A DNA stretch of 64,000 bases from positions 160,001-224,000 of the forward strand of contig JAPDJW010000002.1 of assembly GCA_029258885.1 (NCBI GenBank). Reading direction: 5' to 3'. Made by a program: the position numbers and the translations under genes. Numbering within the stretch: position 1 is the stretch's first letter; each line of letters opens with the position of its first letter. The stretch is from Thermoproteota archaeon (GTDB lineage Archaea > Thermoproteota > Thermoprotei > Thermofilales > B9-G17). The notes under the pieces are model-generated. The model was given only the letters and a program-made list of their open reading frames with translations. It ran no database searches and was not told the DNA's origin. This document shows, in pieces, positions 4,298 to 55,422 of the stretch.

Positions 4298-6244
4298 ATG
4301 AAAAAACTTTTTTTATTTATAATAATTTTAGTGGTAAGCCTAGTAGCTAAGCCCCTTATCGGCGTATTTTCCTATAGTAATGATGAAGTCTACGAAAACT
4401 ACAAGTATAAGGCAACAGTACATATAACCGAGACAGCTGGCGTGGATAGATTCTTTGAGCTCGTAATAGTAAGAACTCCACCAATTGATGTAAGCGTTTT
4501 CAAAATAGACTACTTAAGCGGGCCGTCCTCGGCTAAACATGGAGGCGTAGCCTACGTAAAGGATGTACTCGTAGTAAAGGCTGAAGGAGATAAGCTTATT
4601 GAAATACCATCCCAAACCGGCGATGTCATATTTTATCCTAACAATACGGTATCCTTCAACATCTATTTCCTAATTAATATTTCTGGGAACAGCAGAGATA
4701 CATACTACATCTACTTCGGAGCTAAGGATCCAAGCAAGATTGAAGATCCGCTGAAAAAGTATAAGACTGATCTAAGATTCTCAGAAACTAAAACCGGGGG
4801 AGTAAGCGTAGAAAACACCTATTACAACGTTACCGTTGATTCCTCACTTGGAGGCTGGCTGACTAGCCTAATACATAAAGCTGGAAGCGGCACAAAGTAT
4901 GTACATGGCGATAGTGGAGGAGGAGCCTTCATATACTATAAAAACAGGTGGTTATCCCAAGTTTTTAATACAAAGAAGGTGGAGTATAGGATTTGTGCAT
5001 TAGGTCCAATAGCAGTGCACGTGGAATTCTGGGGACCTATAGTAGATACATCGAAGAAGGATCTCGGAGTAGGAGAGTATCATACAACATGGATATTTAC
5101 AGCCTATTCTCCGAGGATAATCCTGATACAAAACGTTACTTTGAAGACCGTAATTAAAGCCAACGATTTTAGACCAATACAGTTTTTCATACCAAAGTTC
5201 AACTGGTATGATTTCTACGTCTTACAGTCAGATAGAACGCTCTATCAGGGGTCCGTAACGAAGTCCGTTGATAAGGGTGGAGCAGGAGTGGACTTTAATG
5301 AGGCCTTCTGGGAGGTAGATATAACCAAAAATAATCCACAAGATGCTGTTGCCGTAATACCTGAACACCCAATCTTTGACCTAGTTAAGGAGCACTGGTA
5401 CAATATAGGCTGCCTAGACTACGTTAAAAATACTAGAAATCCGGACACGAGGACGCAGGTATTTGGTCCGGGAACCTACGAGAACCCCGTCAAGTTCTTC
5501 CTGATAATAGATAGAGCAGATAGAATGCTGGAGAACGACTTAAGCATAATATATACGTACGAGAAGCTGCTAAAGCAGCCATTAATAATTGAATCAGAGT
5601 TTCCGGAGATAGAGGTTAAGAGGATTACATATGCAATATACGCCTTCAAGATAGTCGATATAGCTAATAACCCGGTTAAGGACGTTTTAATAGTAAGTGA
5701 TGAAGCGAGACAGAATATTACGGATGAGAATGGAATAGCTTACCTAAACCTGACCTTAGGGAAGAGGACTATAAACATATTCTGGCATAATCTCAGCGTA
5801 GGCACGCTACACATAGTAGCTTCACCAGGTGGCGAAAACCTAACCATACAGATAAATGTCGCTGTAGTAAATGGGCTATCATTCGGCTCTAATGGAACGA
5901 TAGAGTCCCTCCCCACGGTAAGTAATGAAAAGATTTCATTAAATATCTCGTCTACGCCCAACACACTAGTATTATGCATAGTCACAGGATTGGAGAAGGG
6001 TCCATTAGCGGTTAAGGTAAATGGGGTCGTAGGCTCAAGCGGATACGACTACACGTACAGGGACGGAGTTTTAACAATATATGCCATAACCGACGCCAAG
6101 GGTAAAGCCGCAATCGAGATAATGTTCGTTTCAGAGGAAATCCTACCCTTCTACATGTTTCTTCTGGCGATAATATTCGGCTTTATCATACTAGCTATAC
6201 TGCCTTTTGCGTATCATTTAAGGGGTGAGAAATATGTCAGGTGA
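4298..6244 (+). CDS. Secreted membrane-anchored multidomain surface protein (DUF2341-like region, beta-supersandwich, Ig/carboxypeptidase-regulatory-like domain)
   Basis: AAAGGTG RBS, MKKLFLFIIILVV signal peptide, RDTYYIYFG motif, VENTYYNVTVDSSLGGWLTSL sandwich start, VDIANNPVKDVLIV Ig-like repeat and C-terminal TM. Confidence 0.7.
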   Translation: MKKLFLFIIILVVSLVAKPLIGVFSYSNDEVYENYKYKATVHITETAGVDRFFELVIVRTPPIDVSVFKIDYLSGPSSAKHGGVAYVKDVLVVKAEGDKLIEIPSQTGDVIFYPNNTVSFNIYFLINISGNSRDTYYIYFGAKDPSKIEDPLKKYKTDLRFSETKTGGVSVENTYYNVTVDSSLGGWLTSLIHKAGSGTKYVHGDSGGGAFIYYKNRWLSQVFNTKKVEYRICALGPIAVHVEFWGPIVDTSKKDLGVGEYHTTWIFTAYSPRIILIQNVTLKTVIKANDFRPIQFFIPKFNWYDFYVLQSDRTLYQGSVTKSVDKGGAGVDFNEAFWEVDITKNNPQDAVAVIPEHPIFDLVKEHWYNIGCLDYVKNTRNPDTRTQVFGPGTYENPVKFFLIIDRADRMLENDLSIIYTYEKLLKQPLIIESEFPEIEVKRITYAIYAFKIVDIANNPVKDVLIVSDEARQNITDENGIAYLNLTLGKRTINIFWHNLSVGTLHIVASPGGENLTIQINVAVVNGLSFGSNGTIESLPTVSNEKISLNISSTPNTLVLCIVTGLEKGPLAVKVNGVVGSSGYDYTYRDGVLTIYAITDAKGKAAIEIMFVSEEILPFYMFLLAIIFGFIILAILPFAYHLRGEKYVR

Positions 6245-8216
6245 AGCAAGCACAGGGGCTAAACTAGTAAAGGCATACGTGCTAGGAATACTATTAACAA
6301 TTATAGTGACGATGGTTAACAGCTTTGCCTGGATCTTAGCTCCAGGAGCAGATTTCCCCATTAGCATTCTAGCGCCTATACTCATTCTATTCATCCTAAG
6401 GATAGTCTCAGATATTGGAGCCAAATTATCTAAGGAAAGTATGGCCATAATATACTCGATGATCCTTGTCTCCATAGGATGGAGCTTCATATCTGCTTTC
6501 TGGATATCACAGGCATCCGGCTCGGTCTACGTACCCAGACTGAGGGCTATAGTCTCCCAATGGATTCCCGATTTATGGACTCCTAGGAGCATACTCATAT
6601 TAAAAGGGATGTTTCTCGGTGGCAGTATACCATGGGATGCATGGATGACTCCGGTGCTGTTCTGGATCGCTCTTGCATTAGCATGGGCTTTCCTACTATT
6701 ATCACTAATGCCTCTCTTCAGCACAATATTCGTAGATATAGAGAGACTTTCATTCCCACTATCAACAATACCCCTAGCAATTATAGGTAAAAGTAGCGGC
6801 AGTAAGTTCAGCGAGTACTTTAGGGATATACTATTCATAGGTGGTTTACTCATAGCAATTGCCTTCACTTTGCCCGATGTAATAAACACTGCCGTGAAAA
6901 ATCCCAATTTCCTGCCTTCTCCAGCTGTCCTCATGACGGTAGACTGGCACGAAGTATTCCCAGAGATAAAATATGTCTTAAGGGGTGCAGTATTGTACAC
7001 CAGCATTACTCCGTTAATGTTTGCCTTCGCTTATCTACTCCCCCTAGATGTTCTGTTAACTCAATGGATAACTTACATTTTCTTCATGATAGTACTCCCA
7101 GTAGTAGATATATACATGCTTCATCCGGAGAGGTTTAGAGAGTACGTCAATAGCCCGGGTTATGCGTGGGACATGACTATATCCCCGGCGTATAGCGTTT
7201 GGAGGACGGAAGCATTAACATTAATAGGAGGAATATACGGCCTAGCACTTTTCTATATAGCCTACAACTGGAGCAACATATCCTCATGGATTAAAAAGCT
7301 ATTCAGGGAGCGGCCTAAGGTGGAGATGTTATCGGGAGTATACTTTGTATTCTCGGCAGTAATACTAATAGCCCTACTAACGATTTCGGGAATGCCTCTA
7401 GTACTATCAATACTACTGCTAATAATGCTTATAGTCTCATCCATAGGAATGACAGCATTAAGAGCATCAGCTGGAGGAAACATATTAAATGGCCTAGTAA
7501 TTGGAGGAGAATCCAACAGACTCTTCACGCTGGCTTTCCTCTACGATACAGGTGGAGCACTAGGAATATTCAATAGCAGACCCAGCCCGACGCCTACTCA
7601 GCAGTGTTTTCTCAGTATGCAAGCTGCAATAATTATAAATGGAGATGCAATGGCATGGAACCCGCTGGCTCTAGGACTAGAGTCATATAAAATATGCAGT
7701 GAATACGGTATAGGTAAAGATAAGGTATTTACCGCACAGGCATTAGCGTTGCTTGTAGCGATACTAGTATCCTTCCCACTTGTGCTCTCAGTATTCTACA
7801 GCTATGGTATTGAAAACATAATATATACCTATCACAGCTCGATAAGAGATATCTTCGCCGAGGCATTTACGAGAGACTTAACCCTGTACTACACTAACGT
7901 TGGGCCTCTTAACGTCCAGTTAAGTAGCCCCTACCTTCCACACACTATAGCTGGAATAATAATAGTAATCGCCTTGATGTACATGAGAATAATGAAGCCT
8001 GGTTTCCCGCTAAATCCAGCGGGATACGTGCTGGGAGCAAGCTTCTTCACCTATCCATGGTGGACAGCATTCCTAGTAGCATGGATTGTTAAGTACATCA
8101 TAATAAGGATAGGTGGAGCCGAGCTCTACGAGAGGACAATAAAGTTCTCAACGGGAATAGCTATCGGAACGGGCATAGGTCTCCTAATGCTATGGTTAGC
8201 TTCACTAACGACCTAA
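6234..8216 (+). CDS. Polytopic membrane protein, OPT-superfamily-like class B (DUF6785/DUF6784-like), module copy 1
   Basis: Many hydrophobic segments. FVDIERLSFP, FPLNPAG and KYIIIRIGGAELYE are shared with 41643-43676 and 44930-46963. ATG 6234 follows GGGGTGA (track GTG 6225). Confidence 0.72.
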   Translation: MSGEASTGAKLVKAYVLGILLTIIVTMVNSFAWILAPGADFPISILAPILILFILRIVSDIGAKLSKESMAIIYSMILVSIGWSFISAFWISQASGSVYVPRLRAIVSQWIPDLWTPRSILILKGMFLGGSIPWDAWMTPVLFWIALALAWAFLLLSLMPLFSTIFVDIERLSFPLSTIPLAIIGKSSGSKFSEYFRDILFIGGLLIAIAFTLPDVINTAVKNPNFLPSPAVLMTVDWHEVFPEIKYVLRGAVLYTSITPLMFAFAYLLPLDVLLTQWITYIFFMIVLPVVDIYMLHPERFREYVNSPGYAWDMTISPAYSVWRTEALTLIGGIYGLALFYIAYNWSNISSWIKKLFRERPKVEMLSGVYFVFSAVILIALLTISGMPLVLSILLLIMLIVSSIGMTALRASAGGNILNGLVIGGESNRLFTLAFLYDTGGALGIFNSRPSPTPTQQCFLSMQAAIIINGDAMAWNPLALGLESYKICSEYGIGKDKVFTAQALALLVAILVSFPLVLSVFYSYGIENIIYTYHSSIRDIFAEAFTRDLTLYYTNVGPLNVQLSSPYLPHTIAGIIIVIALMYMRIMKPGFPLNPAGYVLGASFFTYPWWTAFLVAWIVKYIIIRIGGAELYERTIKFSTGIAIGTGIGLLMLWLASLTT

Positions 8217-8234
8217 AATTAAGGTGAATACGTA

Positions 8235-11200
8235 TTGAGGAGATCCCATACCAAGCTAAAATATTCATTAATAATTTTTTTAATAATTACTATCCTTTTT
8301 CTTCCGACAGTTTCTGCTTCCCCCGGAAGCTCCACGCCAGTCTCCGACGTAGAAGTAATTAAAAAATTTATAGGCAATAGCACAGCCGCCGTATTAAGCC
8401 ATGTGAGGACTCTTTCTTCCTACGGCTCTAGAGTTGTGGGGACTCAAGGCTTCTATGAAGCTAGAGATTATATAGCGTCGATTATGAGCAATCTGGCTGA
8501 TGAAATATATTACCAGAACTTCACAGTAGCTGTGCCACGCTACGATATAGACTTCTCCTATAGCGTAGACGGTAATAACTATAGAGCCAAAATATATGCA
8601 ATCCTTCCTAATGGCTTCTCTCTAGGTCAGATTGGGGATATAGAGGGAGAACTAGTTTATGTAGGATCCGGCGAGCTTGATTCATATAGAAACATGAATG
8701 TTAACGATAAGATAGTTCTCATAGACTTCGAATCAGAGATAAACTGGCTTAGATACGGGAGCATACTAGGACCCCCCAAGGCATACATCTTCATCGAGCC
8801 GTACGTTCGAGGAGCGACATTTAACGATTCACTGGGTACCGAATTTACGAGAAAAGACGTATATGGACAATACGTCTCCATCCCAATAAATACGCCTAGA
8901 TTCTACGCAAGGATTAGTGATATTAAACATATTCTATCGTTGCTTGAAAATGGGAAAACGATCAAGGGTAAAATACGTGTGAGGGCTGAATGGCGCCTGG
9001 TCAAGGCATGTAATATAATAGGCTACATTAAAGGCACAGTTTTTCCCGACGAGGTATTAATTGTAGCTGCACACTATGACTCCTACTCTATAGTCCCCGA
9101 AATTTCTCCCGGAGCGGATGAAGCTCTTGGAATAAGCTTTATGCTAGAACTAATGAAGTTCTTCAGTATAAATAGGCCGAAAAGATCGATACTTTTCGTA
9201 GCATTATCCGGACACTGGGAAGGCTTGGCTGGAGCAAGGATTTTCACAAAAAACATAATCTTAGGGAAAACTTACAACGTGAAATTATTCATATATCTGG
9301 CTTTTTCGGCATCTGGAAGCGAGCTTGCAATTCTCCATGCAGGACGATTCTACTTTAATCCAACGGCGGGAATAGAGTATCACAGAGCTGGAGTGTTAGA
9401 TAAACTCAACCTCTACATAGGACAATTAAAGATAAAACTGTATGGAGGAGAAAGGAGCGTAGAGAGTTTCATATATCCCGGCTACGCTTGGCTCAACATA
9501 ATATATGGGGATCCTCTCTCAATCTTCGATAGCGAGGCCTTTACACTCGCTGGAGGATACGGTCTAGCCTTCTACGTTCCAGGTCCAAGGCTGTACTGGG
9601 GTACGCCCTACGATGAATATTCCAAGTTTAAAGAGAATTTCGAGAATAACGTAGTTTCAAGGAAGTCAAACTTCCTAGAAGCCTCAGCCTCATTAATATA
9701 TATTCTGGCAAACGACCTAGAGCTTAACATTAAGGAGCCAAGCTTCCGTCTTTTTGATACAAACTATGGTGGCTTCTCCACAATCAGGGGACGCGTATTA
9801 ATATACAACTTAAGCACGGGATGGTATACCCCAGTACCTAATGCTATTGTCAGATTAAGGGTAATAGCCAGCATGCCTAATTCATTTGGCCTCGGAATAT
9901 ACGGTGGATACCCCAAAATAAAGGCCGAATACGTGGAGGGATACTATACTACATCTGGAAGCATAATTAACATAACTGATAGCAAGGGCGAATTCACAAT
10001 ATATGGGATATCGCCGTCAGCCCTCCTGGGAACGGAGTACCTTCCGAGCATAAGGTACAGCTATATAATAGAGGCGTGTATCCTCAATGAAAGAGGCGAG
10101 ATAGAATACTACAGCGACCTAGGAGTACACAGCAGAGATGTAGTGTTTGAAATCAATAGGGAAGAAGAGATGGTAAACCATGTTATTTTCAGATGCGGTT
10201 CAATAATTGCTTATTCGATAATAGAACCTGAAACTCTATCAATACCGAAAATATTTAGGCTTGAGGTAAGGGACGCATTAAGCCACATGACCCCGCAATT
10301 TTACGGAAGCACTTTCTACTCATTCAGCGAGGGATATAGCGCTTTCATAGTATTTTCGAGACCAGATACCCCCATTGAAATATTTATAGTATCGAGAAGC
10401 CCCCTAACAGGCGAACCCAAGCCGCTGGTTTTCCTAAACAATGTAAGCAGAGGACTTAGAGCTGAATATGGTCGTAGCACCTACCTGAAGTTCTCATTCA
10501 TCCAGATAGCAGAAGATCTTTACAATATATGTTCGGAACGCTATAGCATGTTTTATAGTCAGGGGATAAGGAACCTTGAAGTAGAGGATAACCTTAACAG
10601 CATAAGACTGTATCTGGATAAGGCTAGGGAGAAGGTTGCCTTAAACGAATACACTCAGTCCATGATTCTAGCGCTGGAGGCTTGGAAGCTAGCTAGAGAA
10701 GTATACGTGAAACTGTATTACGAAGGTTTAAACATAAGGTTTTCAATAATATTTGTATTTATTCTCCTAATACCCTTTATCTACTTCTTTGAGAGGCTCC
10801 TCTTCATGTACCCCGATATTAAAAGACAGACGCTAGCGATGGTTTCAATTTCTATAGTAATAGTTGTATTCCTATACCTCATGCATCCGGCCTTTAAGCT
10901 GGTAGAGGATCTTTTCCTCCTTTTCCTAGGAGTATTAATTTCTGTATTAACTCTACCTACAATGGCTATACTCTTATTCGACTTCGCTTCGCTACTCTAT
11001 GTATTTAAGAAGAAGGTTAGAGGACCTCACTTTACTGGTATAAGCCGTAGCGGAGCTATAGTTGCAGCTTTCAATATTGGTGCGTCGATGATGAGGCGAA
11101 GAAAACTTAGAAGTAGCCTAACCTTCGCAACCCTAGTCATAATAATTCTAGCACTTATAATATTCTCATTCCCCGCCGTAACCATCGGTGTAGTTAAGCG

Positions 11201-12797
11201 GAACACCTATCTGGCACCAACATACACTGGAATACTCATACGAGATAGCCTGTGGAGAAACATACCTACGAAAGTTATTAATTTAGTAAACTTAACTTTA
11301 AAGGAGTCCGGATACCCCTACAGCATATCAACTAGGGTATGGCTTTACCCATCGGATTCAATATACATAGCTGGCAGGAATGAGGAATTCAAGGGGCTAA
11401 TTAGCGCTTTCTTAGGCTTCGATTGGAGGGAGGATAAGGTATCGGGTATAAGCGGCCTCATTGTGAGGGGTAGATGGTTTAAGGAGAACGATTATCAAGT
11501 ATGTATTGTTGATGAAAAGGCTGTGGAATATCTAGGCATAAATCTAACTAACGTAGCTTTAGGCAGGGAATACCTTACTTTCTCTAATGGATTAAAGCTG
11601 AAGGTGGTAGGCGTAATAAATGGTAAATTATTCAGTAACAAGCTGGAGCTGGATGGAGGAAACTTTACTCTCCTAGATATTAAGGGTATAGCTGTGGGCT
11701 TAAAAGAGGAGCGTATGAAGCTATTCAGATATTTGCCTACCAGTATAGTGCGGGGGGAGGATCTAGGCTACTTCATAGTAATAGTGCCTTCAAAACTAGC
11801 CTTAGACTTGGGAGGAAAAGTCTATAGTATAGCCGTAAAGGTTCATGAAGCTAACATCTATAGGACGCTGGAGGCCATCGACGATATAGCTAAAAATCTA
11901 GCATTAAGGCTAAACAAGACGTACTTTATATACGCCGTACAATTAACTCCGAAAAAGACTTTAAGTGTCTATAGATATATGGTCTCCCCAGTGTATGTAT
12001 CAGGAAGCGTAGAGCAGCTCGTAATACCGATTGCTATAGGCATATTAATACTATTCAACTCTATGCTATCAAACGTGTACGAGAGAGCTAAGGAAATAGG
12101 CGTCTACAGCGCATTAGGATTATCGCCTTATCATGTATCGGGAATGTTTCTAGCTGAAGCAGTAATTCTAGCCGTAGTAAGTAGCATGATAGGTTATTTA
12201 ATGGGCGTATTCCTGGCTAAAATGATAAACGTATTCAAGCTATTCCCCAAAATATATCTAAACTTCACCATCAGCATACCGATATATTCAACTATGCTTT
12301 CGATAGCTGCATCCCTGCTTGCTATATGGTATCCAGTACTCAGAGCATCTAAGATGGTAACACCATCCTTTGAAAGGGAATGGAAGCCAAAAAGCAAGCC
12401 TAGAGGAGATGCCTGGATAGTAAACCTGCCGTTCGTAGCTACAAGTATGAGCGAAGCTAAGGCTATTCTTAAATTCATCTTGGAGTACCTCGAACATTAT
12501 AGAGTACACGGCAAAATATTCACTACGCTGGAGGCAGGTATACGCTACGAGGAGGAAACGCCGGTACTCAAGGCAAAACTTCAGATGGCACCATATGAGC
12601 TTGGAATACAGCAGGACGTATCTATAGTTATATCCAGGATAGCGGAAGAACGATACTCGTTCACGCTTGAAATGAGGAGAATTAGAGGTCCAAGACAGTC
12701 TTGGATAAGATCCTCGACTATTCTTGCGAGAGAGCTTAGAAAGCAATTCCTAATATGGAGGGGGTTAAGTCTTGAGGAGAAGAGAAAATACGAATAA
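8235..12797 (+). CDS. PA + M28 peptidase-like ectodomain fused to MacB/FtsX-like permease (1520 aa), module copy 1
   Basis: TTG start after AGGTGA; signal peptide. PA domain GELVYVGSG...DKIVLID. M28-like VAAHYDS...PGADE...SGHWEGLAGA. MacB TM1 MMRRRKLRSSLT. FtsX motif SNVYERAKEIGVYSALGLSP. Confidence 0.85.
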   Translation: MRRSHTKLKYSLIIFLIITILFLPTVSASPGSSTPVSDVEVIKKFIGNSTAAVLSHVRTLSSYGSRVVGTQGFYEARDYIASIMSNLADEIYYQNFTVAVPRYDIDFSYSVDGNNYRAKIYAILPNGFSLGQIGDIEGELVYVGSGELDSYRNMNVNDKIVLIDFESEINWLRYGSILGPPKAYIFIEPYVRGATFNDSLGTEFTRKDVYGQYVSIPINTPRFYARISDIKHILSLLENGKTIKGKIRVRAEWRLVKACNIIGYIKGTVFPDEVLIVAAHYDSYSIVPEISPGADEALGISFMLELMKFFSINRPKRSILFVALSGHWEGLAGARIFTKNIILGKTYNVKLFIYLAFSASGSELAILHAGRFYFNPTAGIEYHRAGVLDKLNLYIGQLKIKLYGGERSVESFIYPGYAWLNIIYGDPLSIFDSEAFTLAGGYGLAFYVPGPRLYWGTPYDEYSKFKENFENNVVSRKSNFLEASASLIYILANDLELNIKEPSFRLFDTNYGGFSTIRGRVLIYNLSTGWYTPVPNAIVRLRVIASMPNSFGLGIYGGYPKIKAEYVEGYYTTSGSIINITDSKGEFTIYGISPSALLGTEYLPSIRYSYIIEACILNERGEIEYYSDLGVHSRDVVFEINREEEMVNHVIFRCGSIIAYSIIEPETLSIPKIFRLEVRDALSHMTPQFYGSTFYSFSEGYSAFIVFSRPDTPIEIFIVSRSPLTGEPKPLVFLNNVSRGLRAEYGRSTYLKFSFIQIAEDLYNICSERYSMFYSQGIRNLEVEDNLNSIRLYLDKAREKVALNEYTQSMILALEAWKLAREVYVKLYYEGLNIRFSIIFVFILLIPFIYFFERLLFMYPDIKRQTLAMVSISIVIVVFLYLMHPAFKLVEDLFLLFLGVLISVLTLPTMAILLFDFASLLYVFKKKVRGPHFTGISRSGAIVAAFNIGASMMRRRKLRSSLTFATLVIIILALIIFSFPAVTIGVVKRNTYLAPTYTGILIRDSLWRNIPTKVINLVNLTLKESGYPYSISTRVWLYPSDSIYIAGRNEEFKGLISAFLGFDWREDKVSGISGLIVRGRWFKENDYQVCIVDEKAVEYLGINLTNVALGREYLTFSNGLKLKVVGVINGKLFSNKLELDGGNFTLLDIKGIAVGLKEERMKLFRYLPTSIVRGEDLGYFIVIVPSKLALDLGGKVYSIAVKVHEANIYRTLEAIDDIAKNLALRLNKTYFIYAVQLTPKKTLSVYRYMVSPVYVSGSVEQLVIPIAIGILILFNSMLSNVYERAKEIGVYSALGLSPYHVSGMFLAEAVILAVVSSMIGYLMGVFLAKMINVFKLFPKIYLNFTISIPIYSTMLSIAASLLAIWYPVLRASKMVTPSFEREWKPKSKPRGDAWIVNLPFVATSMSEAKAILKFILEYLEHYRVHGKIFTTLEAGIRYEEETPVLKAKLQMAPYELGIQQDVSIVISRIAEERYSFTLEMRRIRGPRQSWIRSSTILARELRKQFLIWRGLSLEEKRKYE

Positions 12798-14661: not shown

Positions 14662-14670
14662 GGATAGCTC

Positions 14671-14737: not shown

Positions 14738-14779
14738 AGTAATCCCAAACTTATACTTAAGTATTGAGGATATAGCAAC

Positions 14780-30257: not shown

Positions 30258-30372
30258 AAGCTAACACCCGAAATTAGCACCTTCCACCTCCTATGGATTC
30301 GGCTGCTACTCTAGGTCTCTATATTTAGCATTGGTGCAAAAATTAATTTTTCTTTCATACATTTTAGTGAAC

Positions 30373-32582: not shown

Positions 32583-32584
32583 AT

Positions 32585-33781: not shown

Positions 33782-33828
33782 AACGGTCACCGTAAACTGT
33801 TATATACCGTATTAGGAAAATAAAATCT

Positions 33829-34923
33829 TTGGGTAATAACTTGAAGGGAGTTGAAAGGTTTCTTAAAGCATTAAATAGGGAAGAGCCCGATAGAGTCCCG
33901 ATATGGGAGCTTATTATTGATAGACCCGTGATTAAGTCCCTCTATGGGGATATAAGCTACGCTGATGTTGTTGAGATACTGGATTTAGATGGCATAACTG
34001 CTGGAGAGGACGTTAAAATGAGGGAGATTGAAAAGGGGAAATTCGTATGCGAATGGGGGATAACATGGGGCATAACCGAGTTTGGCGTAGTATATCCCCT
34101 TAAGGGTCCCATAAAAAGCAAGAAGGACTTAATCGACTATCAGCCTCCAGATCCCGATGCCGACTACAGGCTAAATACGCTTGAGGAGTATATCGATAGA
34201 TTTAAAGGCGAAAAAGCTATAGTTCTTTTAAGCCACGACGCCTTTGAATTCTCCCATTACTTGGTTGGCGGCATGGCGAATCTATTTAGGCTTTACTATA
34301 AGGATCCCGAGGCCGCACATACTCTAGCGGAGAAGATAGTCGAGTATAAATCAAGAGTCATAGAGAGAGCTATTAAGGCTGGGGCTGACGTTATATTAAG
34401 CGGAGACGACTACGCCGATAAAAACGGTCCGCTAGTATCACCCCGAATGTTCAAAATCTTCATTATGCCCTATCTTAAGAGGGTAGTTGATACGGCAAAA
34501 AGGTACGGGAAGCCGTTTATAAAACATACGGATGGAAAGATATGGAAAATCCTTGATATGATAGTTGCTACCGGTATAGATGGCCTACATCCAATAGAGC
34601 CCTGCGCAGGAATGGATATACTTAAGGTTAAGAGGATGTATGGAGATAGGATCTGCGTAATAGGCAATATAGATTGCTCCTATGTTCTTCCGTTAATGTC
34701 CCCAAATGACGTCGAGGAGGTTGTTAAGGAGACTATAGCTAAAGTGGGTCCCGGAGGAGGATATATATTATCCTCCAGCAACAGCATTCATCCAGGAGTT
34801 AAGCCAGAAAATTTTCTTGTAATGATTAAAGCTGCAAAAAGATATGGTCGTTATCCAATCAGTGAGGAGCTTATCAGGGAATATGGTAAGAGAAACTTTT
34901 ACAGTAAGATTTTCAAGTTTTAG
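33829..34923 (+). CDS. Uroporphyrinogen decarboxylase-like / methylcobamide methyltransferase-superfamily protein
   Basis: ERFLKAL..EEPDRVP, GDDYA...GPLVSP.MF, HTDG, IGNID and GGGYILSSSNSI. Confidence 0.82.
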   Translation: MGNNLKGVERFLKALNREEPDRVPIWELIIDRPVIKSLYGDISYADVVEILDLDGITAGEDVKMREIEKGKFVCEWGITWGITEFGVVYPLKGPIKSKKDLIDYQPPDPDADYRLNTLEEYIDRFKGEKAIVLLSHDAFEFSHYLVGGMANLFRLYYKDPEAAHTLAEKIVEYKSRVIERAIKAGADVILSGDDYADKNGPLVSPRMFKIFIMPYLKRVVDTAKRYGKPFIKHTDGKIWKILDMIVATGIDGLHPIEPCAGMDILKVKRMYGDRICVIGNIDCSYVLPLMSPNDVEEVVKETIAKVGPGGGYILSSSNSIHPGVKPENFLVMIKAAKRYGRYPISEELIREYGKRNFYSKIFKF

Positions 34924-36854: not shown

Positions 36855-37042
36855 GTAGAACACCATTGCTGGTGGTCAATAACTTAGAGGATAATTAGCT
36901 TATTAATGTTATCATCACCATGGTACAGACAGCGCTAGTTATTCAATACATGCTATTCCAGCTAGTCCATAGGCCTACGGCAAATGATAAACAATATAAA
37001 ACGTAACTGGTATATCATGGTAGTATTTGAGGTGGTATGTGC

Positions 37043-44870: not shown

Positions 44871-44929
44871 GGCGTTCACCATTAAGAGGGAAAACTCAAT
44901 TCATTAAAAAGATGCGAAATAATAAAAAA

Positions 44930-46963: not shown

Positions 46964-47022
46964 CACCTAATTTACTTCATATATCTAATAGATAAAAATA
47001 TAAGAAAATATATTAAGGTTGT

Positions 47023-48828
47023 TTATTTCTTGGTTTCCTCCTCTTTTCTAGGCTTAGCCTTCCTTATCTTCAGGAATACGAAAACTATTATCAGTATTAT
47101 GATTATTACTGCTGCAGCTATTAGGTTCCCGTACTTAGTCATAAATGGTATCTCAATCTTAAACTTTACAACTGCTTCTGCCTTGTTTCCAGCTTTATCG
47201 TAGGCTACTATCTTAAGCTCATGCTCACCCTCGGGAACCTTTGCAAATATAGACGTTGTTGATGTAGTAGTCTCATGTAGCTGGCCATCAAGATATACCT
47301 CAAACTTATCTATGCCGGCCCCTTCGTCAGAAGCTGTCCATGTGGCTGTAAACTCTGTCTGAGGTATAGTTTCCCCAGACTTAGGTGAGGTAATGGTTAT
47401 TGTTGGTGGAGTAACGTCAACATTAAATATCCTGCTTGCCGACGTAGTCTCGCCCCTAACGTTATAAACAACTATGGTTACATTATGAGAACCTGTAGTG
47501 AGGCCTGTTAGTGTATATGTTGTTTGATTAACTGGAATGTTTGCCGCTATACGCTCTCCATCCAGATATATCTCTATCTTCTCCAATCCTACTCCCTGAA
47601 CAAGCCACTCAACCTCAACATCTCCAGTACTCCATCCAGCCTCTAAAGGCTTCAAAATCGTAACTATTGCTGGAGGTAAGGTGCCTATAGCGTATACGAA
47701 TCCATCATTAGACCCCACGAATAATATTCCATCTCCAAAGCTTACATCCTGGACATCAGCCCCAAATACCGTCAAATTCCAAAGCATTTCTCCAGTACTT
47801 GCATCAAGACAGTAAAGTATTGCATGGTCTGTACCAAAGTACAGTCTTCCCTCAGCATAAACCACATGCTGATAGAATGGCCCGCTCCCCTGGAACTCCC
47901 ATACGACCTCTCCAGTATCCTTATTAACGGCTATTATCTTAGCATCAGGCTTATACTCCTTAACAATAACATAGCCTTCAGGTATTACCAGAGGCTGATT
48001 ATATATACCTCTTCCAAACTTGTACTGCCATATAACCTCTCCCGTTTCAGCGTTAAGCGCATATAACGTGCTACCTCCACCAGTTATATCACCGACAACA
48101 TATACTACTCCATCGTGGAACGTTACTCCAAACGGCGCGCCGCCAGTATTAAACTCCCAGAGCTTATTGCCAGTATCTGGGTCAAGGCAGTAAACCTTGC
48201 CATCATAGCTTGCCCAGTAGAGCTTACCATTACCTAATGCGGCTGGACCTCTAACTTGTCCGCCAGTCTCAAACTGCCAAATAAGTTCTCCAGTAGTTGC
48301 ATTAACGCAGTACATGAAGTAATCCTTAGATCCAAAGTATAGTTTGCCATTATATACTAGCGGCGGTGTCATTATAGCTCCAGCAGTCTCAAACTGCCAT
48401 ATCAGCTCTCCGGTATAGAAGTCAAGGGCATACATTATGTTATCGTAGCTACCAATAAACACGTAAGTTCTTCCATCAGTCCCCTCCCATACACATGGCG
48501 TACTATAGATGGGTCCACCTGTTGGGAATGACCATATCCATTTACCAGTAAATTCCTCTAGGCAGTGAACTAAGCCATTTCTCTCACCATATATAACTCT
48601 ATCCTTATATACCAGTATTTGACCCCAGTGTTTAGCGCCATCTTCATACTTCCACAAGATGTTTGGCTCCTCAGGACCGTCTGTGGCAACGCCATTGCGT
48701 TCGGGACAGCCCATATACATTGTCCACCACGGTCTCTCCTGGGGCTGTGAATAAACTGCTGGCATATAAAACGGCGCTATACTGAACGAAAGAAGCAATA
48801 CTAACAACATTAAGATACTTTTTTTCAT
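47023..48828 (-). CDS. Secreted PQQ-like beta-propeller surface protein with FN3/Ig-like domains and C-terminal TM
   Basis: Signal peptide, repeated WQFETGG/WEFNTGG blades, DVTPPTITITSP Ig repeats, TM and basic tail. ATG 48828. Confidence 0.85.
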   Translation of the reverse strand: MKKSILMLLVLLLSFSIAPFYMPAVYSQPQERPWWTMYMGCPERNGVATDGPEEPNILWKYEDGAKHWGQILVYKDRVIYGERNGLVHCLEEFTGKWIWSFPTGGPIYSTPCVWEGTDGRTYVFIGSYDNIMYALDFYTGELIWQFETAGAIMTPPLVYNGKLYFGSKDYFMYCVNATTGELIWQFETGGQVRGPAALGNGKLYWASYDGKVYCLDPDTGNKLWEFNTGGAPFGVTFHDGVVYVVGDITGGGSTLYALNAETGEVIWQYKFGRGIYNQPLVIPEGYVIVKEYKPDAKIIAVNKDTGEVVWEFQGSGPFYQHVVYAEGRLYFGTDHAILYCLDASTGEMLWNLTVFGADVQDVSFGDGILFVGSNDGFVYAIGTLPPAIVTILKPLEAGWSTGDVEVEWLVQGVGLEKIEIYLDGERIAANIPVNQTTYTLTGLTTGSHNVTIVVYNVRGETTSASRIFNVDVTPPTITITSPKSGETIPQTEFTATWTASDEGAGIDKFEVYLDGQLHETTTSTTSIFAKVPEGEHELKIVAYDKAGNKAEAVVKFKIEIPFMTKYGNLIAAAVIIIILIIVFVFLKIRKAKPRKEEETKK

Positions 48829-49058
48829 AAATTCTCCCCCCACCTGGATTTATCTTTTAGCTTTAGAACTTATAAGTTTTAACATTAAATTTATATATTA
48901 GATGGCTAACTTTTTATCAAATTTTCTATCGAAGGAAATTATCAAAATATTATACTACATATTTCCCAAAACAATTTATGGTAAAAATATAAGTCTTAGG
49001 CGGGATAAGCGTTATTTAGGTAAAGATTTAATCTAGTATAAGCCGTGGAGGGACGGTT

Positions 49059-52000
49059 ATGAGGAGGAGGACTATAATATTGTTATTACTATTCTTCAGT
49101 CAAACCCTGGCATGGGCACATGGTTCCTCCTATGGGGCTTTTCCCATTGATAATATTAACTTCGACCACATAGCGGCTATGGCGGAGAAGATTTCAAGCT
49201 TTGAGTCCCGCGTTACGGGCTATCCGGGATATTATAGGACATTAACATATATAGAGAGACTAGCCGCAAATTTTGCGAATAAGCGTGGTTTAGATATTAT
49301 TAAACAGAATTTCACGGTTTTGGTGCCACTTGAGATAGAATCGTATCTAGTAGTTGGGAATACTAAATACAGGGCGTACGCTATGTGGCCTAATCTCGTG
49401 CATACTTGCAAGACCGTAAAGCCTATTTCGGGAAAGTTTGTCTACGCTAAAGGTGGTGGAATTGAAGAGATAAATGGTCTTCCATTAAATGGAAGTATAG
49501 CATTCCTTGATTTTAACTCGGGCTATAACTGGCTTAGGATAGCTAGTTTAGGGGCGAAAGCCATAGTGTTCGTGGAGCCGAACTCCACTAATACATACGA
49601 GTCTTTAACTAAGTTCATAGAGGTGCCTATAAACATTCCGAGACTATATGTAAGGAAAGATACATTCGAGGAAATACTGAGAATTAATCCCGAGGAGGTA
49701 AGCGTTTTTCTTAATATGGAGTTTAGGGAGGTTAATGCTACGAACATAGTAGTCGAAGTACCAGGTTCAAATGAGAATTTAAGGAATGAGATAATAGTGG
49801 TAGCAACGTATCTGGATTCTTTCTCACCAGTACCCATGCTTTCCCCCGGCTTTAGTGAGGCCATATCTACGGCATACCTACTAAACCTGCTTGAAATACT
49901 TGCCGAGAATCCCACCGAAAGAACGGTCTGGATAGTATTCCTTTCGGGACACTGGCAGGCATTAGCTGGAGCCAGATACTTCGTTGAAAAGTTTTTCCTA
50001 AATGAGGGTAGGAGGATTGTAGCCTTTATAGGACTGGATCTAAGCAACGATAAGGGCAAACTGGGACTAATGTACAAAGGCTATTTCTATGAGTTCTATG
50101 CGCCCAACGTTGAGAGGTGGATTTTCTGGCTTAAAAATAAGATCTTTGGAGATGGAGGCTATTTAGATAAGCTATCTGAGCTAAGCGACTTTGAGTACAG
50201 GGAGCTAATAGTTGATGCATTAGTTAAAAACTATGGATGGTGGGGTCAAATGTATGGACCGTACATCCTTGACAGCGAGCCCTTTGTAGTAGCTCACGGG
50301 CTAGGTTTTACGATAGCGGATCAGATAGAGTTTCCAACGCTCAAATTAACTCCAATAGACGAAGTTAGAAACTTAGATAGGGAGAATTTGCTACGGAAGT
50401 TGGAAATTGCGACAGCTATTATCTATGGGCTTGCTAACGAGCCGGACTATATTAGCTGGAGCGATATATCCCCCGAGAGGATTAAATGGAGTGCTGGAGG
50501 AGCTGACGTGGCAGGCTTTATTACAATGGAGGGGGAGGTTCTAGTATATAATGTAAGTAGCGGATGGTATACAGCGCTAGGGAACGCCATAGTTATAGTG
50601 TCTCGTTACGGTCTCGATTATCTAGAGTTCCCATTCACTAGAATATATGTTAAAAGCAATGAAAATGGTAAATTTAGGGTACTAGGACTTGGACATGGAT
50701 CGGCCGTAGGTTGGTACTACGTAGAAGCCTACGTCCTAGATAATACCACTGGAGACATAATTTATGCGCCGGATTACGGTGTTTACGGCTATAGACAGCT
50801 ATCCTTCGCATACTCTCCTGATAGCCATCCAGTTAAAGCATCAACCGTCGTCTTTAGGTGCGCTACCATAAACATATTTGATTTAGTTGATCCCCTCGGC
50901 CTTAGAAGAACGGTATATTATGATAGAAGGTTCATGAAGACATACACGAGATTCACGGGGGGCACAATTTACCACTTATGGCTAAACTTAGGCTCCTCGC
51001 TTTCAATACTCGATAAAAGCACTTTAAGTGAATACATTAGGTGGGGAGCATGCGTACATAGGGGAATTGGCGCGGCTTCAATATTTGTTCCATTAAACTC
51101 TACGACTGTTATACTATTTAAGATAGGGCAGCCAGCTGCCACGGTAGGTATTCTGGCAAATGCATCACGTGAGTACCCTAATGGGGTTGGCTTTAAGTGC
51201 CAGGCTAAATCGATTAGCGTTAAATTCTCCTCCTTTATATTTGCTAGAGATCTATATCTGGTGGCTTTAAAAAGATATTCTATACTTAAAGAGAACGGCA
51301 TAAGAGATCCATTAGCTGAAAAATACCTGGATCTAGCGGGGCTTTACCTTGCCGATATTAAACGTGAAATTAAAGAAAACAATTACGGCTATGCCTATAC
51401 TCTAAGCATTATAGCGTGGAATACTTCATTAAAAGCTTACAGAAGGATTATGGGAATGATAAGTGATACGATGACTGTAAACTTAATGTATTTCCTCCTA
51501 ACTGTTCTATTCATATTCTTCCTAGATTTAATATTATTTAAGAAAAGAACGATTAAGGAGATTGCCTTTATAGCCGGAGCAACTGCAGGATTAATACTGA
51601 TTTACTACCTAATACATCCGGCTCCCAAGATAAGTCAAAGCTTCATAATATCTCCGCTCTCAGTAACTCTCGAGATACTATTCTTGTTTGTCGCTGTACT
51701 ATTTCTGAGAAACTTCTCCCTCATAATTAAGGAGGCTGCTAAGAGGGTATCTGGGACACATAGGATAGAGGAGGATTTCTTTGCTTTAGCCTCTTTATCA
51801 TTTAAGTACTCGATAGAGAACGTTATGAGGCGTAAAATTAGGGCTATGCTGATAATGATTAACCTTACAACAATAATGTTTGCAATGGTTGCACTTACCT
51901 CAGCTTATCCATCTCAAATGACGGTGGAAGGTTACGTTGGAGGAAGCGCAATTTATGAGGGTGTAATGATAAGCTATGGGTTTGAAAACACACCGGCTAA

Positions 52001-53474
52001 CGTAATAGACTACGATCTCTCCAAGGCTATCCTACCGCTATTACGCGGGCTAGACTACAAGATAAGCTACAGGATCTGGCTCTACCCACAGTCATACAGG
52101 GGCTCTTCAGTATTTATCTTAGCTACATATAATGGCAGGACTTACAAGTTCAAGTCAATATTAGGCTTATCTCCCGACGAAATAGAGCTTAGATCCGGAA
52201 TAAAGGATATGATGATAGGCAGATGGTTTGAGCACTACGATGAGTACGTATGCATTATCTCAAGCAGCGCAGCCGAGAAACTTGGCATTAACATATACGA
52301 TAAGTTGAGTCTGGGAGGGCTCAATTTAACAGTAATAGGTATTCTAGATTCCTCAGCTATAGAGTATCTCAAGGATCTTGATGGAAGCTACATAGTCCCC
52401 GTGGATCCGGACGACGTCGTTAGCTTAAAGGTTGGCATAGTATCGGAGGAAGTTAGGAAGCCAGTATCGCTAGATGAAATAATCATAGTCCCCGATAGGT
52501 TGGCACTGAAGCTGGGAGGCTATGTCTCAAGCATAGCAGTTAAGGTAGACTATGAGCATGCACTTAACATAGCAAGGAATCTATCCCTAGTATTGGAGGG
52601 TCCAGCCATCTATCTGTCTGATGGATCGAGGGTAGTAACGGTAAGCGTTATTTCAGGTCTAGAAATATACGGATGGAACTACCTGCTAATTCCGCTCATA
52701 ATAGGTTCATTCACGGTAGTGATATCCATTATGGGCAATATTAGAGAGAGAAAATCTGAAATAGACGTATACTCGGCCATAGGCCTGCCTCCAAGCGGAA
52801 TAGTAGTGATGTTTATGACGGAAGCCTTAATATACGGGGTTATAGCTGCGGTCATAGGCTATATAGCTGGTGTCGCTACAAACAGAATCCTAGTAGGACG
52901 TGGCTTGCTTCCTCCAAGCTTTATGATAAACGTATCGTCCTCCTTCATGATTATAGCATTTGTAATTATAATGTTATCAACAATTCTTTCAGCGCTCTTC
53001 CCCTCTCTATCGGCATCAAAGATGGTTACTCCTTCGCTTAGAAGAAAATGGAGAGCTACCAAGCCTGTAGGGATAAGGTGGGAGGTCCCCTTACCATTCA
53101 CAGCTAGCAGTATAGCTGAGGCTAGGGGTATGCTTAGGTATCTAGCGGAATTCTTAGGATACCATAAGATAGAGACCCCCGATCCATTTTTCGTGGATGA
53201 ACTGAAGGTTGATCTCGATAACCTAAGGATAGATGCTAAAATGACACTTAAGCCCCTTGAGTCGGGAGTAAAGCAGAGCTTCGTTCTTTCCGCTAGAAGG
53301 TTTGGCGGTAGGTATACATTCGCCGTCTCGATAACTAGGCTGAGCGGTTCTAAGGAAATATGGAGAACCGTCAACTATAAGGTTATAGATGCCGTAAGGA
53401 AGCAGTTTCTACTATGGAGAAGCCTACCCGAGGAGGAGGCATTAAAGTACATTAGAGGTGAGAAGCATGTATGA
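49059..53474 (+). CDS. PA + M28 peptidase-like ectodomain fused to MacB/FtsX-like permease, module copy 3
   Basis: ATG after GGAGGG. ATYLDSFS, SGHWQALAGA, NVMRRKIRA and GNIRERKSEIDVYSAIGLPP. Confidence 0.85.
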   Translation: MRRRTIILLLLFFSQTLAWAHGSSYGAFPIDNINFDHIAAMAEKISSFESRVTGYPGYYRTLTYIERLAANFANKRGLDIIKQNFTVLVPLEIESYLVVGNTKYRAYAMWPNLVHTCKTVKPISGKFVYAKGGGIEEINGLPLNGSIAFLDFNSGYNWLRIASLGAKAIVFVEPNSTNTYESLTKFIEVPINIPRLYVRKDTFEEILRINPEEVSVFLNMEFREVNATNIVVEVPGSNENLRNEIIVVATYLDSFSPVPMLSPGFSEAISTAYLLNLLEILAENPTERTVWIVFLSGHWQALAGARYFVEKFFLNEGRRIVAFIGLDLSNDKGKLGLMYKGYFYEFYAPNVERWIFWLKNKIFGDGGYLDKLSELSDFEYRELIVDALVKNYGWWGQMYGPYILDSEPFVVAHGLGFTIADQIEFPTLKLTPIDEVRNLDRENLLRKLEIATAIIYGLANEPDYISWSDISPERIKWSAGGADVAGFITMEGEVLVYNVSSGWYTALGNAIVIVSRYGLDYLEFPFTRIYVKSNENGKFRVLGLGHGSAVGWYYVEAYVLDNTTGDIIYAPDYGVYGYRQLSFAYSPDSHPVKASTVVFRCATINIFDLVDPLGLRRTVYYDRRFMKTYTRFTGGTIYHLWLNLGSSLSILDKSTLSEYIRWGACVHRGIGAASIFVPLNSTTVILFKIGQPAATVGILANASREYPNGVGFKCQAKSISVKFSSFIFARDLYLVALKRYSILKENGIRDPLAEKYLDLAGLYLADIKREIKENNYGYAYTLSIIAWNTSLKAYRRIMGMISDTMTVNLMYFLLTVLFIFFLDLILFKKRTIKEIAFIAGATAGLILIYYLIHPAPKISQSFIISPLSVTLEILFLFVAVLFLRNFSLIIKEAAKRVSGTHRIEEDFFALASLSFKYSIENVMRRKIRAMLIMINLTTIMFAMVALTSAYPSQMTVEGYVGGSAIYEGVMISYGFENTPANVIDYDLSKAILPLLRGLDYKISYRIWLYPQSYRGSSVFILATYNGRTYKFKSILGLSPDEIELRSGIKDMMIGRWFEHYDEYVCIISSSAAEKLGINIYDKLSLGGLNLTVIGILDSSAIEYLKDLDGSYIVPVDPDDVVSLKVGIVSEEVRKPVSLDEIIIVPDRLALKLGGYVSSIAVKVDYEHALNIARNLSLVLEGPAIYLSDGSRVVTVSVISGLEIYGWNYLLIPLIIGSFTVVISIMGNIRERKSEIDVYSAIGLPPSGIVVMFMTEALIYGVIAAVIGYIAGVATNRILVGRGLLPPSFMINVSSSFMIIAFVIIMLSTILSALFPSLSASKMVTPSLRRKWRATKPVGIRWEVPLPFTASSIAEARGMLRYLAEFLGYHKIETPDPFFVDELKVDLDNLRIDAKMTLKPLESGVKQSFVLSARRFGGRYTFAVSITRLSGSKEIWRTVNYKVIDAVRKQFLLWRSLPEEEALKYIRGEKHV

Positions 53475-55422
53475 GAGACGCTTTAAATCAGGATTTACTA
53501 GAAGGTCTATACTAGCGCTCATATTTACCTCATTCACGATACTTCCTGTACAAATACTGCTTAGACTTACATCAGGAGAATCTATCGCCGCTGCAGCAGC
53601 ATACATAACTATAATTCTCTTTACTGAAATATCAGTATTCCTAGGAAATCCGCTAAGCAAGCAGGAGGTTTTCATAATATACTCGCTCGCAGCTCTTGCT
53701 GGAACAGCTGCGCCGTTTCTAGACTTCGTATACTACGCGTACTTTAAGACTTCAGAAATAGCGTGGTCGCTTAAGAATCCCTATACTGGAAGGCCCATAC
53801 CGCTTGAAATACCCTCCTTCTACGCCCCTCCAATAGGCTCTTCAGCCTATAGGTTTAGGTCGTTTATACATAGTGACTGGATACTGCCGATATTTGCATT
53901 CACGTTTCAATTCGGACTGCTTCTGGTACTAATGGAGTTTTCCCTAACATTTATGGGAGCGGCGTTATTCATAGATGTTGAAGAACTACCATTCCCCATA
54001 GCAAATGTTCAAGCACAGCTCATAAGCACACTAACTGAAAGAGATAGAGAAAGAATGAAGATATTTACGATAATGGCCGTAGTCTCTTCAATATACGCCT
54101 TCGTGCTTTACGGCATTCCAATATTATCCATGGGGATGTTCGGTACAAGCATTCAGATAATTCCTCTACCATGGCTGGATATGACCACGGGGCTAATAGG
54201 CATAGAGAAAATACTGCCTGGAGCCATGTTTGGAATTTCAACAGACCCCATAGCATGGGGAGTGGGGCTACTCCTATCCTCAGACACTTTAATATACATG
54301 ATTATTGGAAGCATAGCTGTATGGGTTATAGGAAATTACCTAGCTTTAAACGTATTCAGTAGCGAATTTCCCGAGTGGGCAGCTGAGTGGAAGCCTGGCA
54401 TGTCGCTTTCACTAATATGGCAGAGAAGCTACCTCAGGGTATGGTCCTTCATACACCTTGGCATATTTTTCGCTGTTTCAGCTATAATAGTTGCTTCAAA
54501 GTTTAAGAGTCTAATTAAGGCTTTTAAAATATTAATAAATCCTCCGAGAAGAGTGAAGGAGGCAGGATACATAGACATGCGAATACTAGTTTTAACGTAT
54601 GTATCAGCAAGCTTAGCGTCAGTATTATTCTTCCATTACCTAGTTAAAGACTATCCGCTACAGTACATGTGGGCAACAGTAGCATTATCCATGGGTGCGA
54701 GCTTCATATTTGCGCTAGTAAATACGGCTATGCTTGGAGAGACTGGAGCTACCGTCGGAACAATAGGGGGAATAGCTCCTCAGCACCTATTGTGGTATGG
54801 TACGCTATATACAACAGGCTATAAAGGAGTTGCTGCCTTCTTCTTTAACCCTGTTATAGGCGGTATACTATCCCCGAGTTGGGTGCAGGCAATTAAAGTT
54901 GCCCACCTCACCGAAACCAAGCCAATAGATTTCTTCAAGGCATACGCGATAGCTTTCATACTATACCACTTGTTCAGCTTCGTATACGTGTCGGCTTACT
55001 GGGCAATAGCTCCTATACCTTCCTCAGTGTACCCAGCAGCTATGGTTTTCTGGCCAATGGCAGTGCTAAACAAGGGAATGTGGGTAACGAGGAGGATAGT
55101 AGCTAAGCCTACTCTCACGGTATACAGCTTCATAACTATGCTATTACTCGGAGCAGCGGGAACTATTTTATCTAAATTTGGATTGCCGTTCAGCATAATA
55201 GGATTAACCGTAGGCATTACCACCCCGCCACCGTTTCCGGTAGCAGCCTTCCTGGGAGGCGTTATAGGAAGAGTTATAATTAGAAATCTGTATAGCGATG
55301 AATGGTTTAAGAAATATAGGGCGGTTATCGTGGCTGGAATAGCGGCTGGAGAAGGCATAGTCATCGGAATATTCTCAGCGATAGCTCTGATGTCTAAGTC
55401 GGCCTGGCTTCTCCCCTATTAA
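53467..55422 (+). CDS. OPT-superfamily-like membrane protein, class A, module copy 3
   Basis: SGFTRR, PLSKQEVFIIYS, IDVEELPFP, LPGAMFGISTD and WAIAPIPSSVYP. ATG 53467 after GAGGTGA overlaps the upstream stop. Confidence 0.75.
   Translation: MYERRFKSGFTRRSILALIFTSFTILPVQILLRLTSGESIAAAAAYITIILFTEISVFLGNPLSKQEVFIIYSLAALAGTAAPFLDFVYYAYFKTSEIAWSLKNPYTGRPIPLEIPSFYAPPIGSSAYRFRSFIHSDWILPIFAFTFQFGLLLVLMEFSLTFMGAALFIDVEELPFPIANVQAQLISTLTERDRERMKIFTIMAVVSSIYAFVLYGIPILSMGMFGTSIQIIPLPWLDMTTGLIGIEKILPGAMFGISTDPIAWGVGLLLSSDTLIYMIIGSIAVWVIGNYLALNVFSSEFPEWAAEWKPGMSLSLIWQRSYLRVWSFIHLGIFFAVSAIIVASKFKSLIKAFKILINPPRRVKEAGYIDMRILVLTYVSASLASVLFFHYLVKDYPLQYMWATVALSMGASFIFALVNTAMLGETGATVGTIGGIAPQHLLWYGTLYTTGYKGVAAFFFNPVIGGILSPSWVQAIKVAHLTETKPIDFFKAYAIAFILYHLFSFVYVSAYWAIAPIPSSVYPAAMVFWPMAVLNKGMWVTRRIVAKPTLTVYSFITMLLLGAAGTILSKFGLPFSIIGLTVGITTPPPFPVAAFLGGVIGRVIIRNLYSDEWFKKYRAVIVAGIAAGEGIVIGIFSAIALMSKSAWLLPY

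Follow-up and report, generated by a model that had tools for sequence, protein, structure and literature searches.

We analyzed a 64,000-nucleotide stretch of DNA (hereafter the window; C1:160001-224000) from a hydrothermal-vent Thermoproteota archaeon of the order Thermofilales (assembly GCA_029258885.1, contig JAPDJW010000002.1), whose genome is 2.1 Mb long, 99.9% complete and about 42% G+C. DNA of the window recurs in metagenomes from hydrothermal vents and marine sediment. Nine genes form three sets, or trios, each with one F, one A and one B gene. F is a protein of about 1,500 aa that combines PA/M28-like, MacB periplasmic and FtsX parts, A is an OPT-like permease and B is a permease with the domains DUF6785 and DUF6784. 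A preliminary description of this DNA had placed three such sets here, and all nine genes are indeed intact open reading frames (ORFs) with the expected Pfam or paralogue matches.

In copy 1 the genes follow one another on the forward strand as B1 (6225..8216), F1 (8235..12797; 1,520 aa) and A1 (12772..14661), the start of A1 overlapping the end of F1 by 26 nt. Copy 2 consists of A2 on the reverse strand (34920..36866), divergent from F2 (37037..41506; 1,489 aa), and of B2 on the forward strand (41643..43676). In copy 3, B3 lies on the reverse strand (44930..46966), and F3 (49059..53474; 1,471 aa) and A3 (53458..55422) lie on the forward strand, with the start of A3 overlapping the end of F3 by 17 nt. 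Paralogues within the window are only 29-33% (F), 31-44% (A) and 23-27% (B) identical, indicating that the copies are old, as had been proposed from their strong divergence. For copy 2 another genome holds an orthologous set (52/74/58% identity), nearer than any paralogue.

A and B are distant relatives within the OPT superfamily

A and B are both polytopic proteins of about 650 aa. They had been described as different classes of protein, a distinction that was not upheld by profile-profile comparison: hhalign finds the two homologous along their length, over about 570 columns (probability 99.8%, E 3e-30), and they have the motif I-E-x-E-(K/R)-L-P-F-P in common. A3 matches the Pfam OPT profile (PF03169) at 53.4 bits (cut-off 25.8; E 2.3e-14) over the whole profile length (positions 16-621 of 623). 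A1 and A2 give no direct match to Pfam OPT and are 31-44% identical to A3; A1, which matches the class A profile, is 33% and 31% identical to A2 and A3, respectively. Across the genome the OPT cut-off is passed by four A copies and one B copy, and in one Atlas cluster of DUF6784/6785 proteins 11% of the members have an OPT match.

DUF6785 and DUF6784 (PF20581 and PF20580) are both above cut-off, in N-to-C order, in B1, B2 and B3 (for B1, E 4e-36 and E 3.5e-16) and in seven copies in the genome; an eighth, divergent B was found with the B profile that we built (E 2e-37). The A and B profiles have no sequence match among solved structures, and NCBIfam has no model for either. Judged by these profile comparisons, A and B are two anciently diverged permeases of the OPT superfamily and distant paralogues of one another.

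F joins a receptor-like ectodomain to an FtsX unit and a cytosolic tail

Pfam Peptidase_M28 and FtsX score above their curated cut-offs in F1, F2 and F3 (FtsX at 46-62 bits), and MacB_PCD is above its cut-off of 27 bits in F3 (28.3 bits) and just under it in F2 (25.2 bits). NCBIfam gives only sub-threshold LolC/E matches to F, which public annotations call 'M28 family peptidase' or 'FtsX-like permease'. We modelled F2 with AlphaFold2 from 31-row alignments as two parts, residues 1-800 (predicted local distance difference test, pLDDT, 87) and residues 790-1489 (pLDDT 83). In these models an N-terminal transmembrane (TM) helix is followed by a PA-inserted M28 fold, two beta-sandwiches, a helical stalk, a TM bundle, the FtsX unit and a cytosolic tail.

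The M28 fold of the F2 ectodomain is complete. It aligns with the Aeromonas aminopeptidase 1rtq at Z 28.5 (root-mean-square deviation, rmsd, 2.5; 264 residues aligned), with the aminopeptidase 2ek8 at Z 27.6 (381 aligned; E 5e-30 for the F profile) and with transferrin receptor 1 at Z 27 over about 400 residues. The catalytic Glu-Glu of 2ek8 aligns with His-Trp in the F profile, inside a Gly-His-Trp/Tyr motif, and canonical peptidase chemistry is therefore unlikely in F. Gly-His occupies this site in seven of the eight F paralogues of the genome, the eighth having Gly-Tyr; a motif scan of 120 relatives found Gly-His in 73, other residues in five, no match in 42 and Glu-Glu in none. The His-x-Asp of M28 is kept in six of the eight paralogues and in 94 of the 120 relatives, and the bridging position is Asp or Glu, so that a residual metal site may persist by these residues. 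Overall the M28 domain looks non-catalytic and receptor-like, in line with the receptor role first suggested for it.

The C-terminal half of F2 has the MacB/LolCDE fold (Foldseek E 4e-10; Z 13-16 in structural comparison). Its FtsX unit is canonical, with a TM helix, a MacB periplasmic core domain and three TM helices, and the periplasmic domain aligns with 3ftj at Z 13.2 (rmsd 3.2 over 175 residues). The last part of F is a conserved alpha+beta domain, cytosolic and roughly 150 aa long, that is not a nucleotide-binding domain. The best fold matches of this tail are generic (START/AHSA1, KA1 and TBP-like, Z about 9), and a search of the protein Atlas gave no usable match to it. Only one FtsX unit is detectable per F, and the first TM bundle has no similarity to it by hhalign (probability 0.3%), leaving the idea of F as an internally duplicated FtsX pseudo-dimer unsupported.

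No ABC ATPase (PF00005) match is present in the window, and no ABC-like ORF lies within 3 kb of F1 or of any other of the eight F genes. For each of the four small FtsX genes of the genome (220-393 aa), an ABC ATPase gene lies at a distance of 4-7 nt, and their products are without the tail. The tail is present in all eight F proteins (hidden Markov model E 1e-44 for F1 and E 3e-49 for F3) and in one 1,351-aa relative, which likewise has no ABC-like ORF within 3 kb. Each part of the module comes from a known superfamily, but F lacks both the cognate ATPase of type VII ABC systems and the catalytic pair of M28 enzymes.

Some trio loci, in this genome and in related ones, also hold a second FtsX protein of about 950-1,200 aa, without an ATPase gene and with no detectable tail. 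Members of this second family are found at L017:3812-6685 (G000:C2:99812-102685) and L019:1913-4876 (G000:C4:94913-97876), and some carry CarboxypepD_reg.

F, A and B form a co-inherited genomic unit

The whole genome has eight F, eight A and eight B genes, all of them in eight clusters. We drew 20 F loci from 16 further genomes belonging to the order; A is adjacent in all 20 and B lies within 7 kb in 19, with gene order and strand varying from locus to locus. Contiguous B-F-A genes are also found on contigs labelled Bathyarchaeia, Brockarchaeota and WOR-3. The WOR-3-binned contig (L041, GCA_039803405.1; 14 kb) carries a typical archaeal-type B-F-A trio, for which a binning error or an inter-domain transfer is possible. 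In a complete 1.6-Mb genome from another class, A, B and F are each present exactly once; the three genes are contiguous and lie beside a surface-anchored GH57.

We surveyed the phylum in an even sample of 151 genomes. F was found in 41, A in 39 and B in 44, and every genome with A (39 of 39) has F and B as well; the assemblies of the two genomes that have F without an intact A are fragmented. In two genera of the archaeon's own order F is missing, and so are A and B. Distance matrices of F, A and B from 29 trios are correlated at r 0.84-0.90, a level reached by none of 2,000 permutations, indicating that the sets duplicated and diverged together. Correlated divergence of this kind could arise from relatedness alone, and is no proof of contact. 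Overall these results support F, A and B as a conserved, co-inherited genomic unit.

Other approaches were less informative. A search with A3 for fused forms among longer proteins found none, which is weak evidence. Complex prediction with A2 and three TM fragments of F2 gave a score of 0.01; its split-chain design makes this uninformative either way. F2 alone as a query for related loci returned no confirmed relative, and the relatives described here came from genome searches.

Two of the trios lie in a murein-catabolic island

The neighbours named in the preliminary description (GH94, AnmK, a URO-D-like protein, GHL10, a C39-like peptidase and a PQQ-type propeller) are all present. The neighbours of copy 2 (29202..34923) comprise GH18, a surface Amidase_2, an AP_endonuc_2 TIM barrel, AnmK and a URO-D/MtaA-like protein, and those of copy 3 (55486..62217) comprise a C39-like peptidase, the diaminopimelate decarboxylase LysA, a NagZ-like GH3, a NagK-like kinase, the etherase MurQ and the exo-muramidase NamZ. 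AnmK scores 486 bits (over its cut-off), LysA 456, MurQ 382 and the NagZ-like GH3 209 (cut-off 207). By these family matches, copies 2 and 3 sit in a complete bacterial-type set for the catabolism of N-acetylmuramic acid (MurNAc) and anhydro-MurNAc, which suggests that the archaeon feeds on bacterial peptidoglycan and strengthens the earlier idea of muropeptide uptake in a catabolic context. Our literature search found no paper on a MurNAc/anhydro-MurNAc pathway in archaea. The annotated genes of the window include no major facilitator superfamily (MFS) transporter, no phosphotransferase system (PTS) transporter and no ABC ATPase, and the trios therefore stand where an importer would be expected.

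Upstream of copy 1 (2..2851) lie a GH94 phosphorylase, truncated at its 5' end by the start of the window, and an AsnC-type regulator whose C-terminal part is sugar-enzyme-like. The trio ends a run of five genes that opens with two accessory surface-anchored proteins. The first (3062..4276, forward strand as B1-F1-A1) has an N-terminal signal or TM segment, a coiled-coil stalk (residues 314-378), a C-terminal TM anchor and weak SlaB/anchor matches (a SlaB-like tail), and ends 21 nt before the next gene. The second (4298..6244, forward strand; 648 aa) overlaps the start of B1 by 20 nt and its product has no family match. We considered it as a fourth OPT-like gene and rejected this, as it has only two TM segments (signal and anchor) and is not similar to A or B. 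Beside copy 3, upstream of B3 and on the same reverse strand, lies a surface-anchored PQQ-type beta-propeller with Ig-like domains (47023..48843; Pfam matches, signal and C-terminal TM segment), a candidate accessory binding protein of that copy.

The other trio loci of the genome contain TrmB, GalK/GalT/GalE/PfkB, DUF6259, a C25-like surface protease and further stalked proteins. Several trios are preceded by paired surface proteins (in the window at 3062-4276 and 4298-6244, elsewhere at L016:7444-10570 and L020:4155-6593) that have a signal peptide, a globular portion, a coiled-coil stalk and a C-terminal TM anchor with a SlaB-like tail; these may be the substrate-binding proteins of their loci.

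A model for the trio and its alternatives

We propose that the trio is the ATPase-independent membrane core of substrate-specific nutrient-uptake loci in Thermoproteota archaea, which would make these loci archaeal counterparts of polysaccharide-utilization loci, and put the probability of this reading at roughly 55%. A and B would provide the translocation path and, by analogy with characterized OPT proteins, would probably be driven by the proton gradient. The ectodomain of F would capture or position oligomers freed by surface-anchored hydrolases and binding proteins and then pass them to the A and B permeases, and the cytosolic alpha+beta tail of F would occupy the site at which the ATPase docks on other FtsX proteins. 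Each substrate would have its own paralogous set: murein fragments such as (anhydro)muropeptides or MurNAc-GlcNAc are the probable cargo of copies 2 and 3, and beta-glucan or chitin oligosaccharides that of copy 1. What we infer here is the physical association, the direction of import, the energy source and the substrates, with the direction of transport and the substrates read from the neighbouring genes only.

A bolder version would make A, B and F one machine, in which an ATPase-less MacB-type mechanotransmission protein is coupled through its tail and TM bundle to an OPT heterodimer, and the proton gradient drives both capture and import. In many uncultured Thermoproteota it would be the chief importer of oligosaccharides and glycopeptides, and would serve, among other uses, to feed on bacterial cell walls. 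To this version, in which the module is a new class of transporter, we give a substantial though less than even chance.

Several points weigh against the trio as an uptake core. To our knowledge, all characterized OPT substrates are peptides or metal chelates and not sugars, and all characterized FtsX/MacB proteins depend on an ATPase. A shared ATPase encoded elsewhere is conceivable; ABC ATPase matches number about 45 across the genome. A conserved ER..EI..SLGLSP stretch at the coupling-helix position of F would fit an ATPase partner too. A biosynthetic role is equally conceivable for some genes found next to B-type genes (DegT aminotransferases, epimerases). Linkage also has its exceptions. 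One family has B-type genes without F or A (five to seven of them in genome G047), and a 1.8-Mb genome of another family (G087) has 23 B-type genes versus two F and two A, each F still in a contiguous trio. From such solitary genes, B-family permeases are evidently able to work alone. In genus g74, F is far from the A-B pair.

The preliminary description had the trio as obligate and in a strict 1:1:1 ratio. This stands within the window, across the genome (8:8:8) and for A with F in all 39 genomes that have A. It fails for B, which some lineages have in expanded numbers or on its own, and which also occurs where F and A are missing. The one-to-one tie is between A and F, and B stands outside it. 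The co-occurrence expected of the three families was likewise found as conserved linkage, joint presence or absence and co-divergence, but with the solo B genes and the unlinked F of one genus standing apart.

Two side observations concern these lineages. In G087 several of the solitary B copies (e.g. L045, L046 and L050) lie beside DegT aminotransferases, a GFO/IDH/MocA oxidoreductase or a GH38 mannosidase. In genome G126 of g74 (and also in G150 and G166) the A-B pair is adjacent and divergent and the single F lies about 700 kb off (C1:683923-688599 versus C1:1381486-1385578 in G126), with counts still 1:1:1.

The main rival to the uptake core, which we consider unlikely, is that F is a genuine type VII ABC mechanotransducer whose ATPase is encoded elsewhere. 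Much as FtsEX works with EnvC, PcsB or RipC, ATP-driven motions of the F ectodomain would then activate or shift surface hydrolases or the products of these, and A and B would separately take in the material set free. The MacB/FtsX fold with its periplasmic domain, the conserved coupling-helix stretch, the surface-anchored hydrolases and binding proteins of the loci and the many ABC ATPase genes of the genome all suit this explanation. It is harder to square with the absence of an ATPase gene within 3 kb of all eight F genes, when every small FtsX gene has one 4-7 nt away, and none was seen in the related loci inspected either. The conserved extra cytosolic domain of F stands exactly where an ATPase would dock, and across genomes F tracks A one-to-one and not any ATPase.

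Less likely still, and in our view quite improbable, is that the three are independent transporters merely co-regulated in catabolic loci, the 1:1:1 ratio having come from block duplication of these loci. Block duplication by itself would be expected to yield correlated divergence, and both the B-family genes found alone in some lineages and the unlinked F of g74 would follow readily. Yet order and strand have been shuffled repeatedly and the trio is still together across classes of the phylum, A never occurs without F in the 151 genomes, the single-copy genome retains exactly one of each, and F and A genes overlap.

F could instead be a transmembrane substrate sensor with BceAB-like flux sensing, its tail gating A and B or signalling to TrmB- or AsnC-type regulators. 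A non-catalytic, receptor-like ectodomain, a tail of a small-ligand- or membrane-binding fold type (the START/AHSA1/KA1-like matches at Z about 9) and the regulators found in several loci point this way, but the regulators are not constant, the fold match of the tail is generic and F has no kinase or DNA-binding part, making this explanation very unlikely. Least probable of all is that the module exports or assembles envelope material such as glycans or lipid-linked oligosaccharides. In its favour, MacB-type proteins are generally known as exporters or extractors, and some B-type genes have DegT aminotransferases, epimerases or a mannosyltransferase-like gene next to them. Against it, the great majority of genes around the trios encode catabolic, cytoplasmic enzymes (GH94, GalK/GalT, AnmK, MurQ, NagZ-like, LysA, GH38), sugar-specific TrmB regulators are present, and eight diverged paralogues suit substrate diversity better than envelope assembly.

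Relation to known systems

Our literature search found no paper on the module, in agreement with the initial impression that no characterized system has this composition. Among permeases the closest relation is the OPT family (PF03169, TC 2.A.67): A3 and several paralogues match the full profile, and B is homologous to A. A1 and A2, in contrast, miss the profile, B is filed as DUF6785/6784, and the proteins are very divergent. Unlike known OPT proteins, A and B are paired with an FtsX giant, and their gene context suggests glycans or glycopeptides more than plain peptides.

F resembles MacB, LolCDE and FtsEX in its three-TM FtsX unit, the preceding TM helix with the MacB-type periplasmic core, the stalk helices and the coupling-helix stretch. 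It differs from them in having no fused or neighbouring ATPase, in its extra C-terminal cytosolic alpha+beta domain, extra N-terminal TM helix, ectodomain of about 780 aa and second TM bundle, and in its constant partnership with OPT-like permeases. With the PA/M28 receptors (transferrin receptor 1, nicalin) it shares the PA-inserted M28 fold and the loss of Glu-Glu, but F mostly keeps the His-x-Asp and the bridging Asp. Unlike these receptors and aminopeptidases such as 2ek8, F is fused to a transporter-type membrane domain, and we know of no characterized protein with such a fusion.

At the level of whole loci the module recalls the polysaccharide-utilization loci of Bacteroidota (SusC/D) and the secondary transporters that depend on binding proteins, namely the tripartite ATP-independent periplasmic (TRAP) and tripartite tricarboxylate (TTT) transporters. 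Here too, substrate-specific paralogous loci bring together surface hydrolases or binding proteins, a regulator, cytoplasmic catabolic enzymes and a dedicated uptake core, whose transporter works without its own ATPase and is served by an extracytoplasmic receptor. There is, however, no homology to SusC/D, DctPQM or TctABC, and the receptor is here an FtsX-type integral membrane protein. No SusC (TonB-dependent) or SusD family is among the Pfam matches of the window genes, the resemblance being one of logic only; an outer membrane is absent from archaea. Surrounding copies 2 and 3, the cytoplasmic and surface enzymes are the MurNAc catabolic set known from bacteria, which there goes with muropeptide and MurNAc uptake (AmpG, MurP, MurT, Opp-MppA) and AnmK-MurQ-NagZ-NamZ recycling. 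Unlike in bacteria, the host is an archaeon and no MFS or PTS transporter or ABC ATPase accompanies them among the annotated genes.

If the trio works as a unit, it would represent an undescribed way to build a substrate-specific importer, from two OPT-type permeases and an ATPase-less FtsX-type receptor, and would widen what FtsX/MacB proteins are seen to do without ATP. DUF6785/DUF6784 would gain a function, as would hundreds of genes that carry the label 'M28 family peptidase' in Thermoproteota, Bathyarchaeia and Brockarchaeota, and glycan uptake by abundant archaea of sediments and vents would be accounted for. Should the archaeon indeed feed on bacterial cell walls, this would bear on carbon turnover in hydrothermal sediments.

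Further observations on the loci

Some flanking genes recur in distant contigs. A URO-D/MtaA-like gene flanks the trio in the window (33829-34923) and on Bathyarchaeia and WOR-3 contigs, and a xylose-isomerase-like TIM barrel (AP_endonuc_2) does so in the window (31744-32385) and on a Bathyarchaeia contig; outside the window these flanking genes lie at L041:12263-13438 and at L042:2936-3943 and 6721-7656. As these conserved accessory enzymes are common to distant contigs, the locus type of copy 2 is old. The AsnC/Lrp-type regulator between GH94 and copy 1 (1532-2851; 439 aa) has an unusually long C-terminal extension that is weakly sugar-enzyme-like. Finally, the window encodes two more surface-anchored proteins, one with a GIFT/ABC_transp_aux-like domain (24147-25610) and one a second PQQ-type propeller with CarboxypepD_reg (27607-29193), which is 28% identical to the propeller beside B3.

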